Source: Escherichia coli
Lineage (GTDB): Bacteria > Pseudomonadota > Gammaproteobacteria > Enterobacterales > Enterobacteriaceae
Assembly (NCBI RefSeq): GCF_003334785.1
Contig: NZ_QOWV01000007.1
DNA: 64,000 nucleotides
Strand: one strand, 5' to 3'
Shown: piece by piece, positions 50,511-62,534 of the stretch
How positions within the stretch are numbered: position 1 is the first letter of the stretch
Layout: every line of letters begins with the position of its first letter
Program-made: the position numbers and the translations under genes
The notes under the pieces: model-generated
What the model saw: the letters and a program-made list of their open reading frames with translations, nothing else
The model's database searches: none
Told to the model about the DNA's origin: nothing

Positions 50511-50715
50511 ATCTCTAACCATATGATTTAAAAACAAATCACTTCGCACGGGCAGGTTTTGGCACCGCAACAAAGCGCAAGACACGCAGTATACCAGTAA
50601 AACTATTCATTCGCGGAATCTGTTAATAAAGCTCGAATTGTGATGACGATCACACATGTTAAAACCTATAATTAATTGCTACTAAAATATTAATGAATTG
50701 AAATGGTGTCTCTTT

Positions 50716-53106
50716 ATGGCAATTAACAATACAGGCTCGCGACGATTACTCGTCACGCTAACAGCCCTTTTTGCAGCGCTTTGCGGGCTGTATCTACTCA
50801 TTGGCGGAGGCTGGCTGGTCGCGATTGGCGGCTCCTGGTACTACCCTATCGCTGGCCTTGTGATGCTCGGCGTCGCCTGGATGCTGTGGCGCAGTAAACG
50901 CGCCGCGCTTTGGCTATACGCAGCCCTGCTGCTCGGCACCATGATTTGGGGCGTCTGGGAAGTTGGTTTCGACTTCTGGGCGCTGACTCCGCGCAGCGAC
51001 ATTCTGGTCTTCTTCGGCATCTGGCTGATCCTGCCGTTTGTCTGGCGTCGCCTGGTCATTCCTGCCAGCGGCGCAGTTGCCGCACTGGTGGTCGCACTGC
51101 TGATTAGCGGTGGTATCCTGACCTGGGCCGGATTTAACGATCCGCAGGAGATCAACGGCACCTTAAGCGCCGATGCCACACCTGCTGAAGCTATCTCCCC
51201 CGTAGCCGATCAGGACTGGCCTGCCTATGGTCGTAATCAGGAAGGTCAACGCTTTTCGCCGCTGAAACAAATTAACGCCGATAACGTCCATAATCTGAAA
51301 GAAGCCTGGGTGTTCCGTACTGGCGATGTGAAGCAGCCGAACGATCCGGGTGAAATCACCAATGAAGTGACGCCGATTAAAGTGGGCGACACCCTTTACC
51401 TGTGTACCGCTCACCAGCGCCTGTTTGCGCTTGATGCCGCCAGCGGCAAAGAGAAATGGCATTACGATCCTGAGCTGAAAACCAACGAGTCTTTCCAGCA
51501 CGTAACCTGCCGTGGTGTCTCTTATCATGAAGCCAAAGCAGAAACCGCTTCGCCGGAAGTGATGGCGGATTGCCCGCGTCGTATCATTCTTCCGGTCAAT
51601 GATGGTCGACTGATTGCGATTAACGCTGAAAACGGCAAACTGTGCGAAACCTTCGCCAATAAAGGCGTGCTCAATCTGCAAAGCAATATGCCAGACACCA
51701 AACCGGGTCTGTATGAACCGACTTCGCCACCGATTATCACCGATAAAACCATCGTGATGGCCGGTTCAGTTACCGATAACTTCTCAACCCGCGAAACGTC
51801 TGGCGTGATCCGTGGTTTTGATGTCAACACCGGGGAGCTGCTGTGGGCTTTTGATCCCGGCGCGAAAGATCCGAACGCAATCCCGTCTGACGAACACACC
51901 TTTACCTTTAACTCGCCAAACTCCTGGGCACCAGCGGCCTATGACGCGAAGCTGGATCTGGTCTATCTGCCGATGGGCGTGACCACGCCGGATATCTGGG
52001 GCGGTAACCGCACACCGGAACAGGAACGTTATGCCAGCTCGATTCTGGCGCTGAATGCCACTACCGGGAAACTGGCGTGGAGCTACCAGACCGTTCACCA
52101 CGACCTGTGGGACATGGATCTTCCGGCACAGCCGACGCTGGCGGACATCACCGTTAATGGTCAGAAAGTGCCAGTTATTTACGCTCCGGCGAAAACCGGC
52201 AACATTTTTGTGCTCGATCGTCGTAATGGCGAACTGGTGGTTCCGGCACCGGAAAAACCGGTTCCCCAAGGTGCAGCGAAAGGCGATTACGTAACCCCAA
52301 CTCAACCGTTTTCTGAACTGAGCTTCCGTCCGACGAAAGATTTGAGCGGTGCGGATATGTGGGGAGCCACCATGTTTGACCAACTGGTGTGCCGCGTGAT
52401 GTTCCACCAGATGCGCTATGAAGGCATTTTCACCCCGCCATCTGAACAGGGTACGCTGGTCTTCCCGGGTAACCTGGGGATGTTCGAATGGGGCGGGATT
52501 TCCGTTGATCCAAATCGTGAAGTGGCGATTGCCAACCCAATGGCACTGCCGTTTGTTTCGAAACTGATCCCGCGTGGTCCTGGCAACCCGATGGAGCAGC
52601 CGAAAGATGCCAAAGGCACGGGTACGGAATCCGGCATTCAGCCACAGTACGGTGTACCGTATGGTGTCACGCTCAACCCGTTCCTCTCACCATTTGGTCT
52701 GCCATGTAAACAGCCAGCATGGGGTTATATCTCGGCGCTGGATCTGAAAACTAATGAAGTGGTGTGGAAGAAACGTATTGGTACGCCGCAGGACAGTATG
52801 CCGTTCCCGATGCCGGTTCCGGTGCCGTTCAATATGGGTATGCCGATGCTGGGCGGGCCAATCTCCACGGCGGGTAACGTGCTGTTTATCGCCGCTACGG
52901 CAGATAACTACCTGCGCGCTTACAACATGAGCAACGGTGAAAAACTGTGGCAGGGTCGTTTACCAGCGGGTGGTCAGGCTACGCCAATGACCTATGAAGT
53001 GAATGGTAAGCAGTATGTGGTGATCTCCGCAGGCGGTCACGGTTCATTTGGTACGAAGATGGGCGACTATATTGTGGCTTATGCGCTGCCGGATGATGTG
53101 AAGTAA
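50716..53106 (+). CDS. gcd: Membrane-bound PQQ-dependent glucose dehydrogenase
   Basis: The known 796-aa protein starts at MAINNTGSRRLLV; N-terminal transmembrane helices plus a PQQ beta-propeller. Confidence 0.96.
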   Translation: MAINNTGSRRLLVTLTALFAALCGLYLLIGGGWLVAIGGSWYYPIAGLVMLGVAWMLWRSKRAALWLYAALLLGTMIWGVWEVGFDFWALTPRSDILVFFGIWLILPFVWRRLVIPASGAVAALVVALLISGGILTWAGFNDPQEINGTLSADATPAEAISPVADQDWPAYGRNQEGQRFSPLKQINADNVHNLKEAWVFRTGDVKQPNDPGEITNEVTPIKVGDTLYLCTAHQRLFALDAASGKEKWHYDPELKTNESFQHVTCRGVSYHEAKAETASPEVMADCPRRIILPVNDGRLIAINAENGKLCETFANKGVLNLQSNMPDTKPGLYEPTSPPIITDKTIVMAGSVTDNFSTRETSGVIRGFDVNTGELLWAFDPGAKDPNAIPSDEHTFTFNSPNSWAPAAYDAKLDLVYLPMGVTTPDIWGGNRTPEQERYASSILALNATTGKLAWSYQTVHHDLWDMDLPAQPTLADITVNGQKVPVIYAPAKTGNIFVLDRRNGELVVPAPEKPVPQGAAKGDYVTPTQPFSELSFRPTKDLSGADMWGATMFDQLVCRVMFHQMRYEGIFTPPSEQGTLVFPGNLGMFEWGGISVDPNREVAIANPMALPFVSKLIPRGPGNPMEQPKDAKGTGTESGIQPQYGVPYGVTLNPFLSPFGLPCKQPAWGYISALDLKTNEVVWKKRIGTPQDSMPFPMPVPVPFNMGMPMLGGPISTAGNVLFIAATADNYLRAYNMSNGEKLWQGRLPAGGQATPMTYEVNGKQYVVISAGGHGSFGTKMGDYIVAYALPDDVK

Positions 53107-53144
53107 GACTTGCTCAGATTGCTGACAACGTGCGCGTTGTTCAT

Positions 53145-53244
53145 GCCGGATGCGGCGTGAACGCCTTATCCAGCCTACAAAATTGTGCAAAATCAATGGA
53201 TTGCACAGCTAGCGTAGGCCTGATAAGCGTAGCGCATCAGGCAG
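53145..53244. repeat. REP elements downstream of gcd
   Basis: gccggatgcggcgtgaacgccttatccagcctac and inverted gtaggcctgataagcgtagcgcatcaggc flanking a short palindromic spacer. Confidence 0.85.
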
Positions 53245-53267
53245 ATTTGCGTTTGTCATCAGTTTAA

Positions 53268-53289
53268 TGCCCGGAGAGATCCGGGCATA
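53268..53289. terminator. Hairpin between gcd and cueO 3' ends (putative terminator)
   Basis: Inverted repeat atgcccgga-gaga-tccgggcat; weak T-tract. Confidence 0.4.
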
Positions 53290-53307
53290 TTTCCGAATAC
53301 GGTCTTT

Positions 53308-54858
53308 TTATACCGTAAACCCTAACATCATCCCCGTATCTTCATGCTCCAGCAGATGGCAGTGCGCCATATAAGCATGTTCTTTCGGTGCATCGTGATT
53401 AAACTTCACCAGCACTTCGCTGACATTACCTTCTACCTTAACGGTATCTTTCCAGCCCGCGCGATGAGCCGCTGGCGGTTTGCCATTTTCTGACAAGATA
53501 CGGAACTGCGTGCCGTGGATATGGAACGGATGCAGCATCATGTCGCCCACGCCAGAGATAACCCAACGTTCGTATTGCCCTTTCGCCGCCGCAAACATCG
53601 GCTTGTTCATATCAAACGCCTGACCGTTGATTTTGTTGGCATGGTGGAAATCGAACTTCCCGCCGTGGTTCATATGATTCATATTGCCGTGCCCCATATG
53701 GCCCATCATCTGGCTGTGATCCATCCCGGCCATCGCCTGATCGCCATATTTCTCCATTAGCATCTGCATCCCCATCATATCGAGCATCGGGTCCATAGAG
53801 AGTTGCAGCTTGCGTACCGTCAGCCCTTCCAGCGAAGGTAACGCAGGCAGGCTACTTAATGTGTCTGGCAAAGCACCGGAGGCACTAATAGCAATCGGCT
53901 GAATCCGCATTACCGGATGAGGCTTATCAAACGGCGCAATCGCCATCCCCATCTGGCTGACCGGCAGCGTCACCAGGTCAAAGGGTTTGTTATCGTTAAC
54001 CTCCACCAGCACTTCAAAACGCTCGCCCATCAGCACCGGCAGTTCGCTCACCTTCACTGGTTCAGGTAGCAGACCACCGTCGCTGGCAATCACATACAGC
54101 GGGCGATTGTCGCTGGTGGCGAAATTGAGCGAACGGGCATTACAGCCATTGAGCAAACGCAGGCGCAGCCAACCACGCGGGGCAGCGTGTTGCGGGTAGA
54201 TTGCACCGTTGGTCAGCAACGTATCGCCAAACCAGCCCACGGCGGCGGTCATCACATCCAGTTGATAATCAATCTGCCCGTCGGCGCTAAATTTCTTATC
54301 CTGAACGATCACCGGAACATCATCGATACCCCACTGTTTTGGCAGCATTAATTTCAGGATCTCGTCATCTTCAATCACCACCAGCCCAGCCAGCCCCATC
54401 GCCACCTGTCGCCCGGTTTTGCCGTGCTGATGCGGATGGAACCAGCAGGTAGCGGCAGGTTGATCAACGTTCAACGTCACCGAGCGCTTGCCACCTGGCG
54501 GAATAATTCCCTGCGGGCCGCCGTCGACTTCACCCGGTACTTCCAGCCCGTGCCAGTGCAACGTTGTCTCTTCCGTCAGTTGGTTGTAGATATCAACCGT
54601 TACCGCTTTGCCGCGCTGTAATTTCACCGCCGGCCCCAGCAGATTGCCGTTATAGCCCCAGGTAGTTGCAGTTTTCCCGCCAAAGGTGGACTGGCCTGCG
54701 CCAATAGTTAACTGAATGCGATTACGGGCATCGGTCGTGAGCAAATCAGGGATCGGTAACGTTGGGCGTTCTGCCGCAAATACTGCGCGGCTCCACAGCG
54801 GCAAAGCCGAAGCCACACCCAGCGCGACGGAATATTTTAAGAAATCACGACGTTGCAT
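53308..54858 (-). CDS. cueO: Multicopper oxidase CueO (periplasmic cuprous oxidase)
   Basis: The known 516-aa protein starts at [28 protein letters not shown] (twin-arginine signal); His-rich copper sites ([19 protein letters not shown]) and a Met-rich segment. Confidence 0.96.
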
Positions 54859-55023
54859 AGTTATTTCCTTATTCTTAAGCAGGCGAAACAAAATCAAACG
54901 TTGAGCATAGTCCTTCCCCTTACGGGAAGGTCAAGCCGCAGACACAATTTAATCGACAATAATGGTCGTCGCCTCGCTCGCAGTGTGCTAACGTTTATCT
55001 TCTTTAAGCCCCTGGTAGAAGCA

Positions 55024-60680: not shown

Positions 60681-62534
60681 ATGAAAATGACTTTGCCGTT
60701 TAAACCCCATGTGCTGGCGCTAATTTGCAGTGCCGGGCTTTGTGCCGCCTCTACCGGGCTATATATAAAAAGCCGCACAGTGGAAGCGCCTGTGGAACCG
60801 CAATCGACACAACTGGCTGTGTCTGACGCTGCCGCGGTTACGTTTCCTGCAACGGTTTCCGCACCTCCCGTAACACCCGCCGTCGTCAAATCCGCATTCA
60901 GCACTGCACAAATAGATCAATGGGTCGCGCCCGTCGCGCTGTATCCCGACGCCCTACTTTCGCAGGTGCTGATGGCATCAACCTATCCGACAAACGTTGC
61001 TCAAGCAGTGCAATGGTCGCACGATAATCCACTTAAACAAGGCGATGCTGCTATTCAGGCGGTATCTGACCAGCCGTGGGACGCCAGCGTTAAATCACTG
61101 GTGGCCTTTCCACAATTGATGGCATTGATGGGCGAAAACCCGCAATGGGTGCAAAACCTGGGCGATGCTTTTCTGGCCCAGCCGCAGGACGTGATGGACT
61201 CGGTACAGCGATTGCGGCAACTGGCGCAACAAACCGGCTCGCTGAAGTCATCAACCGAACAGAAAGTTATTACCACAACGAAGAAAGCTGTACCGGTAAA
61301 ACAGACAGTCACGGCACCCGTCATACCATCCAATACAGTTTTAACTGCCAACCCCGTCATTACAGAGCCGGCAACAACCGTCATTTCCATTGAGCCCGCC
61401 AATCCTGATGTGGTCTATATTCCCAACTACAACCCAACCGTGGTTTACGGGAACTGGGCCAATACTGCGTATCCGCCGGTTTATCTGCCACCACCAGCCG
61501 GAGAACCGTTTGTTGACAGCTTTGTACGCGGATTCGGCTATAGCATGGGCGTTGCTACCACGTACGCACTATTCAGCAGCATCGACTGGGACGACGACGA
61601 TCATGACCATCATCATCATGACAATGATGATTATCATCACCACGATGGCGGTCATCGTGACGGTAATGGCTGGCAACACAACGGCGACAACATCAATATC
61701 GACGTCAACAATTTCAACCGTATCACCGGTGAGCATCTTACTGATAAGAATATGGCATGGCGGCACAATCCAAACTACCGTAATGGTGTGCCCTATCATG
61801 ATCAGGATATGGCAAAGCGGTTTCATCAAACCGATGTCAACGGCGGAATGAGCGCCACGCAATTACCTGCCCCAACGCGCGACAGCCAGCGTCAGGCGGC
61901 AGCAAATCAGTTTCAGCAACGAACACACGCCGCACCAGTCATTACACGAGATACCCAACGTCAGGCAGCGGCACAGCGGTTTAATGAAGCTGAACACTAT
62001 GGGAGCTATGACGACTTCCACGACTTCAGCCGTCGCCAACCACTGACCCAGCAACAAAAGGACGCCGCTCGTCAGCGTTATCAGTCCGCCTCGCCTGAGC
62101 AGCGCCAGGCAGTTCGCGAGAGAATGCAGACTAACCCGAAGATCCAGCAGCGAAGAGAGGCAGCGCGTGAGCGCATTCAGTCCGCCTCGCCTGAGCAGCG
62201 CCAGGCGGTTCGCGAGAAAATGCAGACTAACCCGCAGAACCAGCAGCGAAGAGACGCAGCGCGTGAGCGTATTCAGTCCGCATCACCAGAGCAGCGCCAG
62301 GTGTTTAAGGAAAAAGTACAGCAGCGCCCACTGAATCAACAGCAACGTGATAACGCCCGCCAGCGTGTTCAATCGGCATCACCTGAACAACGTCAGGTTT
62401 TTCGGGAGAAAGTTCAGGAGAGCCGCCCACAACGTCTAAACGACAGTAACCATACTGTCAGGCTGAATAACGAGCAACGGTCAGCAGTATGCGAACGTCT
62501 CTCTGAACGTGGAGCAAGAAGACTGGAAAGGTAA
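60681..62534 (+). CDS. yacH: Uncharacterised secreted repeat protein (DUF3300-like)
   Basis: 617-aa ORF with signal peptide (MKMTLPFKPHVLALICSAGLCAAS), a His/Asp-rich tract, and C-terminal tandem repeats of about 32-33 aa. Confidence 0.9.
   Translation: MKMTLPFKPHVLALICSAGLCAASTGLYIKSRTVEAPVEPQSTQLAVSDAAAVTFPATVSAPPVTPAVVKSAFSTAQIDQWVAPVALYPDALLSQVLMASTYPTNVAQAVQWSHDNPLKQGDAAIQAVSDQPWDASVKSLVAFPQLMALMGENPQWVQNLGDAFLAQPQDVMDSVQRLRQLAQQTGSLKSSTEQKVITTTKKAVPVKQTVTAPVIPSNTVLTANPVITEPATTVISIEPANPDVVYIPNYNPTVVYGNWANTAYPPVYLPPPAGEPFVDSFVRGFGYSMGVATTYALFSSIDWDDDDHDHHHHDNDDYHHHDGGHRDGNGWQHNGDNINIDVNNFNRITGEHLTDKNMAWRHNPNYRNGVPYHDQDMAKRFHQTDVNGGMSATQLPAPTRDSQRQAAANQFQQRTHAAPVITRDTQRQAAAQRFNEAEHYGSYDDFHDFSRRQPLTQQQKDAARQRYQSASPEQRQAVRERMQTNPKIQQRREAARERIQSASPEQRQAVREKMQTNPQNQQRRDAARERIQSASPEQRQVFKEKVQQRPLNQQQRDNARQRVQSASPEQRQVFREKVQESRPQRLNDSNHTVRLNNEQRSAVCERLSERGARRLER
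62061..62446 (+). repeat. Intragenic tandem repeats in yacH (about 4 units of 96-99 bp)
   Basis: Units 1 and 2 are near-identical at DNA level (tcagtccgcctcgcctgagcagcgccaggc[a/g]gttcgcgaga[g/a]aatgcagactaacccg); units 3 and 4 are diverged. Each encodes AARERIQSASPEQRQAVREKMQTNP-QQRR-like segments. Confidence 0.85.

Follow-up and report, generated by a model that had tools for sequence, protein, structure and literature searches.

The cueO locus

Within the 64-kb stretch of Escherichia coli DNA analyzed here (the window), the coding sequence of cueO occupies positions 53308 to 54858 on the minus strand, as defined by an open reading frame (ORF) with an ATG start and by matches to PDB, NCBIfam, and Pfam. 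Its product, a periplasmic multicopper (cuprous) oxidase, comprises 516 amino acids plus the stop codon. While the ORF as listed (53308 to 54897, minus strand) opened at a TTG 13 codons 5′ of this ATG, the true start of cueO is the ATG at 54858 (MQRRDFLK...), not the TTG at 54897. The annotated start of the gcd ORF (50698 to 53106, plus strand) likewise lies inside the listed frame, at window position 50716 (MAINNTG...) and not at the TTG at 50698.

Across its full 516 residues the protein matches PDB 5b7e with 100% identity, and its residues 29 to 516 are 100% identical to 1kv7, 1n68, 3od3, and about 40 further CueO entries. In a profile search, the NCBIfam CueO equivalog (NF008205) scored 982.9 bits, far above its curated cut-off of 525; the runner-up family, FtsP (NF008135), reached 297 bits, under its cut-off of 581, and the match to TIGR01480 (copper_res_A) was confined to residues 1 to 163 with a score below the cut-off. 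Pfam placed Cu-oxidase_3 at residues 55 to 165, Cu-oxidase at residues 227 to 293, and Cu-oxidase_2 at residues 399 to 516. Together with the comparison of an AlphaFold2 (AF2) model with multicopper oxidase (MCO) structures, these assignments give three cupredoxin-like domains and place the enzyme among the three-domain MCOs. The Tat signal peptide covers residues 1 to 28 (MQRRDFLK...AVFA/AERP; 54775 to 54858, minus strand): Pfam TAT_signal matched residues 1 to 20 (E = 7e-4) with the RR motif at residues 3 and 4, the mature crystallized CueO chains in the PDB begin at residue 29, and residues 12 to 28 are modeled with low confidence by AF2. An earlier note, made from the sequence alone, had named the gene as a CueO multicopper oxidase with a twin-arginine signal peptide (MQRRDFLK), and both assignments are borne out by these matches.

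At the DNA level, cueO is 100% identical to the gene in several E. coli genomes, among them those of a laboratory strain and an O16:H48 strain, and the gene was found or annotated in 5425 of 5426 complete E. coli genomes. The RefSeq gene order around it is hpt-gcd-cueO-yacC-speE-speD-yacL-acnB. The product is the same protein as E. coli K-12 CueO (YacK; 1KV7, 1N68, 3OD3, 3NT0, 5B7E), with no detectable difference, and the neighborhood gcd-cueO-yacC-speE-speD and the inverted repeat in the promoter are shared as well; the gene in the window is a K-12-type cueO allele. Because of this 100% sequence identity, published CueO function is applied here to the present sequence, and the encoded enzyme would be expected to have the cuprous oxidase activity of its characterized counterpart.

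Elsewhere in the window, three structured RNAs on the minus strand scored above their Rfam gathering scores: the CssrA sRNA (1147 to 1256; 136 bits), the t44 RNA (2095 to 2181; 83.5 bits), and the HtrA 5′ UTR thermometer (11052 to 11097; 77 bits). A tRNA search found no tRNA genes in the 64-kb window. A 617-aa ORF at 60681 to 62534 (plus strand), which we take to be yacH from its map position, contains the His/Asp-rich run DDDDHDHHHHDNDDYHHHDGGH and several tandem copies of a ~36-aa repeat that includes QSASPEQRQ.

The cueO promoter and plasmid copies of the gene

Read from the sequence, the cueO promoter region spans 54904 to 54934 on the minus strand. It comprises a −35 hexamer, TTGACC (54929 to 54934), and a −10 hexamer, TATGCT (54904 to 54909), with a spacer of 19 bp, and a perfect inverted repeat, CCTTCC-N7-GGAAGG, lies between them at 54912 to 54930. 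We take this repeat to be a putative operator for CueR, a MerR-type regulator. The layout would be that of a MerR-type (CueR) activated promoter, and induction by copper is predicted. A sigma-70 promoter scan that allowed spacers of 16 to 18 bp called no promoter upstream of cueO; the scan missed this promoter because its spacer, at 19 bp, is longer than the scan required.

Copies of cueO at 95 to 100% identity were also present on 19 PLSDB plasmids. For at least 8 of these 19, the homologous stretch ends within the −10 hexamer, at query base 1600 (window position 54907); among this group are IncHI1B conjugative plasmids of E. coli and E. fergusonii that came from pigs, pork, and humans. On the IncHI1B plasmid pP59A-CTX-M-55 (CP044299.1, 3310 to 8906), a gcd′-cueO fragment equivalent to window positions 51327 to 52020 plus 52519 to 54907 lies between two copies of an IS4-family element, presumably IS10 as judged from its terminal sequence and the N-terminus of its transposase. 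The transposase frames are broken in both flanking elements, and an IS end replaces the CueR box of this cueO copy. Because the CueR operator is lost and an IS end stands in its place, transcription of the plasmid gene may be driven from that end and may not require copper. If true, such plasmid copies could give copper-independent CueO on IncHI-type resistance plasmids. A search of one literature library found no paper on IS-flanked plasmid copies of cueO.

Position and composition of the Met-rich segment

The Met-rich segment of CueO corresponds to residues 355 to 400, encoded at window positions 53659 to 53796 on the minus strand. It had been placed at 53650 to 53800 in the earlier note, which named no strand and was right to within 10 bases, and the two peptides quoted there are found verbatim in the translation, the first at residues 355 to 368 (53755 to 53796) and the second at residues 379 to 400 (53659 to 53724). 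These 46 residues contain 14 Met and 5 His, while the remaining 470 residues of the protein contain 15 Met in total; the hypergeometric probability of this many Met or more in the segment is P = 8e-9. When all stop-free stretches of 46 codons in the window's six reading frames were ranked by Met content, the segment came first with its 14 Met. The second-best stretch has 8 Met and is an antisense artefact opposite the His-rich part of yacH; this antisense frame ranks second because CAT and ATG are reverse complements.

DNA-level repeats were considered as the source of the Met/His richness and rejected: Tandem Repeats Finder reported no tandem repeats under the segment, and a search for dispersed DNA repeats found nothing there beyond short two-copy chance pairs. 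With both repeat searches empty, the enrichment is compositional and resides in the protein.

Helix, loop, and copper ligands

The insert to which the segment belongs (residues 355 to 402) lies within cupredoxin domain 3, shortly before the HxxHxH copper motif. Its first part, the Met-rich helix part (residues 355 to 379; 53722 to 53796, minus strand), is followed by a flexible loop rich in Met, His, Gly, and Asn (residues 380 to 402; 53653 to 53721, minus strand). This division is based on an AF2 model built from a 36-sequence alignment, with a mean pLDDT of 88.9 and a TM score of 0.92 to 0.97 against 3od3. The model has a long helix at residues 357 to 375 and a short one at residues 381 to 384, and its confidence then falls, with block-mean pLDDT values of 52 for residues 381 to 390 and 44 for residues 391 to 400 and values below 50 at residues 388 to 400. 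Crystallography agrees with the model here: electron density is usually missing for the loop that follows the Met-rich helix (PMC6155172), and most CueO entries in the PDB model just 461 to 477 of the 488 mature residues. The loop is resolved in 3OD3 alone, a 1.1-Å structure whose PDB description states that residues of the previously disordered region are included. Therefore, with the predicted helix and the low pLDDT in agreement with crystal disorder, the segment consists of a Met-rich helix that leads into a flexible loop.

All 12 canonical copper ligands of the type-1 (T1) copper and the trinuclear center are present in their four motifs (H101, H103, H141, H143, H443, H446, H448, H499, C500, H501, H505, and M510). 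The C-terminal copper motif (residues 499 to 510; 53329 to 53364, minus strand) supplies C500, H505, and M510 to the T1 site and H499 and H501 to the trinuclear center, and these five residues are invariant in the 36-sequence alignment. For the additional copper sites, the residue assignments made in CueO (PMC11494321) were used. The Cu5 (or sCu) ligands M355, D360, D439, and M441 are all present; D439 and M441 are the domain-3 ligands that lie outside the insert, in the codons for D439-M440-M441 (53536 to 53544, minus strand). The Cu6 ligands M358 and M362 and the Cu7 ligands M364, M368, and M376 are likewise present. In published structural work, the insert lies over the T1 copper site (PMC11494321, PMC6155172).

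Conservation within E. coli and among relatives

Using a 211-nt query centered on the segment, we found it at full length and at least 95% identity in 5424 of 5426 complete E. coli genomes. Four sampled alleles had 3 to 6 nucleotide differences over the 211 nt and 0 to 2 amino acid changes each; the changes seen were K350N, M388I, and G399S. This near-universal retention, with few amino acid changes per nucleotide difference, indicates strong purifying selection on the Met-rich segment in E. coli.

Several aberrant copies were examined as candidate variants and set aside. The cueO gene of strain L37 (NZ_CP034589.1, 1501 to 3033) is 86 to 89% identical and is the only copy among the complete E. 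coli genomes whose Met-rich segment is not intact. It was rejected as an alternative allele, being annotated as frameshifted with an internal stop and showing many single-base indels, and most likely reflects a sequencing-error-rich assembly or a pseudogene. Two proteins of 470 to 471 aa (P0008 and P0011) were rejected as natural deletions of the insert, as their gap lies in domain 2 and the Met-rich segment is intact; both are single metagenome sequences and probably assembly artefacts. A third (P0002) was rejected as a natural deletion variant for its internal duplication and truncated C-terminus.

Among close relatives, the two halves of the insert behave differently. Residues 355 to 368 are invariant in Citrobacter and other close orthologues. 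In Citrobacter CueO (84 to 88% identical; P0012, P0037, P0003), the fold, the copper ligands, Cu5, and the position of the insert are shared and the helix half is unchanged, whereas the loop half is enlarged by HGNMN/HGEMG-like pentapeptide units; total lengths are 519 to 544 aa, with Citrobacter freundii proteins that carry extra repeats reaching 539 to 544 aa. CueO of Hafnia alvei (PDB 8R4F), 65% identical in structural alignment, has the same fold, copper ligands, Cu5 residues, and insert position, and its loop half is likewise longer than in E. coli. In P0121 (546 aa, 65% identical), the nearest representative from the 50%-identity library, 83 residues including 18 Met separate the anchors, compared with 61 residues and 14 Met in the present protein. 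The invariance of the helix fits a structural and ligand role, and the length change of the loop fits a role in which bulk composition matters.

More distant homologues were sampled as one representative per 50%-identity cluster (n = 118, full-length). All 12 copper ligands are kept in 115 of the 118, with Leu in place of M510 counted as complete. Between the anchors at residues 350 and 410, the stretch in this set ranges from 9 to 83 residues (median, 15) with 0 to 18 Met. Of the 115 ligand-complete homologues, 63 have no insert (≤16 residues versus 61 in E. coli CueO), while inserts of at least 35 residues occur in 19 homologues; 12 of these 19 contain at least 7 Met, at positions that are not conserved, and 5 are Met-poor. 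Because most distant homologues with intact copper centers have no insert, these comparisons point to a lineage-variable accessory at a fixed site, with recurrent Met enrichment, that lies outside the catalytic core. The reported high diversity of Met-rich domains (PMC12041951, PMC11494321) is in line with this pattern.

Among known systems, the three-domain bacterial MCOs and laccases without the insert have three cupredoxin domains and the same 12 copper ligands as CueO, whereas FtsP/SufI (P0221) has three cupredoxin domains and has lost the copper ligands. Thioether clusters with weak, reversible binding of Cu(I) or Ag(I) are known from PcoA/CopA oxidases, CusF, and the MxxM motifs of the Ctr1 type; the sequence contexts of these motifs are not homologous to the CueO insert, and the likeness is one of general knowledge. 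A Met-rich hairpin is also present in a Thermus enzyme, where its deletion acts differently from that in CueO (PMC11494321).

Function of the insert and alternative explanations

The segment is best read as the methionine-rich insert of E. coli CueO, with the functions of a lid over the T1 copper, a contributor to Cu5, and a recruiter of Cu(I); we put the probability of this reading at roughly 0.92. The identity of the protein, the presence of the ligands, the architecture of helix plus disorder, and the conservation pattern are direct observations, and the functions are those published for the same protein. The insert over the T1 copper is a physical barrier to phenolic substrates, and phenol oxidase activity is 33-fold higher once the Met-rich domain is deleted (PMC11494321). 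Mutagenesis identified Cu5 as the only substrate site in Cu(I) oxidation, while Cu6 and Cu7 appear functionally negligible, their mutants being wild-type-like (PMC11494321). Deletion of residues 358 to 407 or 361 to 396 leaves 10 to 20% of the activity on strongly chelated Cu(I)(BCA)2 and is essentially without effect on the oxidation of free, electrogenerated Cu(I), and copper resistance in vivo is nearly normal without either stretch (PMC11494321). The CueO of Hafnia alvei, with a larger and more Met-rich domain, oxidizes chelated Cu(I) better (PMC12041951). Under anaerobic copper stress, it was the catalytic activity that mattered and not the copper-binding capacity of the Met-rich domain (PMC12510620).

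On this basis, the mechanism may be described as follows. CueO is exported by the Tat pathway and acts in the periplasm, where it converts toxic Cu(I) to Cu(II) and uses O2 as the oxidant, with water as the product. The amphipathic Met-rich helix (residues ~356 to 375) would pack on the type-1 copper and shut out bulky phenols, and this packing over the T1 copper could account for both their exclusion and the bias toward metal-ion substrates. The labile Cu5 site is built from two helix residues, M355 and D360, and two further residues of domain 3, D439 and M441; substrate Cu(I) would dock there and hand its electron to T1. The exposed thioethers, probably with the imidazoles of the loop, would form a low-affinity, fast-exchange surface that takes up Cu(I), including that held by strong chelators, and delivers it to Cu5. 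Current evidence suggests that this recruitment by the Met-rich domain is collective and transient and matters mainly for strongly chelated Cu(I) (PMC11494321); we infer that the His-rich loop contributes to the capture.

The two functional claims of the earlier note are supported: that the insert binds additional Cu(I) agrees with the presence of all Cu5, Cu6, and Cu7 ligands and with published work, and that it gates substrate access agrees with the cover over T1 and the barrier to phenols (PMC11494321). The same note had named absence of the segment from functional orthologues as the observation that would count against its reading and did not expect it. This counterargument proved invalid, as so many ligand-complete distant homologues lack the insert, and it is further weakened by engineered deletions of the insert that stay functional (PMC11494321, PMC12510620).

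Several other explanations of the insert were weighed. The one that survives best, though we consider it improbable, is that the insert serves mainly (i) to acquire copper during maturation of CueO or (ii) to dock a periplasmic Cu(I) partner, with recruitment of substrate secondary. The maturation proposal has as its premise that Tat-exported CueO may receive its coppers in the periplasm. The idea was raised in PMC11494321, since variants that lack the Met-rich domain still protect cells, and a flexible, low-confidence loop with fast length evolution would suit a tentacle for capture or docking. [quoted passage not shown] A narrower form of the idea appears similarly doubtful, namely, that the loop at residues 380 to 402 has a second, non-catalytic role, either in capturing copper for self-metalation after Tat export, as may occur under copper-poor or chelator-rich conditions, or as a docking site for a Cu(I) donor. 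This second role was considered because the loop has been dispensable in assays so far and changes length in a repeat-like manner between genera. Nothing in the window argues specifically for it.

Less probable still is the explanation that Cu6 and Cu7 form a discrete, obligatory relay that passes Cu(I) or electrons to Cu5 and T1. A stepwise Cu6/Cu7 relay is the model of Singh 2011 and Cortes 2015 as cited in PMC11494321; the essential role given to these sites by Cortes 2015 conflicts with the 2024 data. The relay would be compatible with the presence of M358, M362, M364, M368, and M376, all invariant in close orthologues, and with crystal structures (3nt0, 3nsd) in which Cu(I) and Ag(I) occupy these sites. 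However, Cu6, Cu7, and combined Cu6/7 mutants retain the cuprous oxidase activity of the wild type in solution, on electrodes, and in vivo, and occupancy of the sites was seen only in a soaked crystal of the inactive C500S variant (PMC11494321); in addition, the Met-rich inserts of distant homologues do not conserve these positions.

It is very unlikely that the insert acts only as a steric lid, or arose as a neutral expansion of low complexity, and that its Met content has no copper function. Such an explanation could accommodate the absence of the insert from 63 of the 115 ligand-complete homologues, the Met-poor character of 5 of the 19 long inserts, and the repeat-like expansion by which the loop evolves. 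It is opposed by the strong purifying selection indicated in E. coli, by the Met enrichment of 12 of the 19 long inserts (≥7 Met) that share no sequence similarity, which suggests convergence, by the role of M355 and D360 as Cu5 ligands, and by the scaling of activity on chelated Cu(I) with Met content (PMC12041951). Finally, the notion that the Met-rich signal is due to an 81-aa plus-strand ORF at 53515 to 53760, which does appear in the ORF listing, and not to cueO can be dismissed: this ORF was rejected as a real feature, being a mirror image of the Met-rich frame, since ATG and CAT are reverse complements and such a frame yields a stop-poor, His-rich antisense frame, the same effect is found opposite the His-rich stretch of yacH, and the sampled E. 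coli annotations all place cueO alone there.

Significance

The feature described here is already known, having been reported since 2002 (PDB 1KV7) and dissected repeatedly, and nothing about it is new in this sequence. The general question of what Met-rich domains do in vivo is under active study, and the present sequence does not advance the answer. The CueO insert itself is a textbook feature, with over 40 crystal structures determined for this same protein, and its occurrence here leaves the understanding of the enzyme unchanged.
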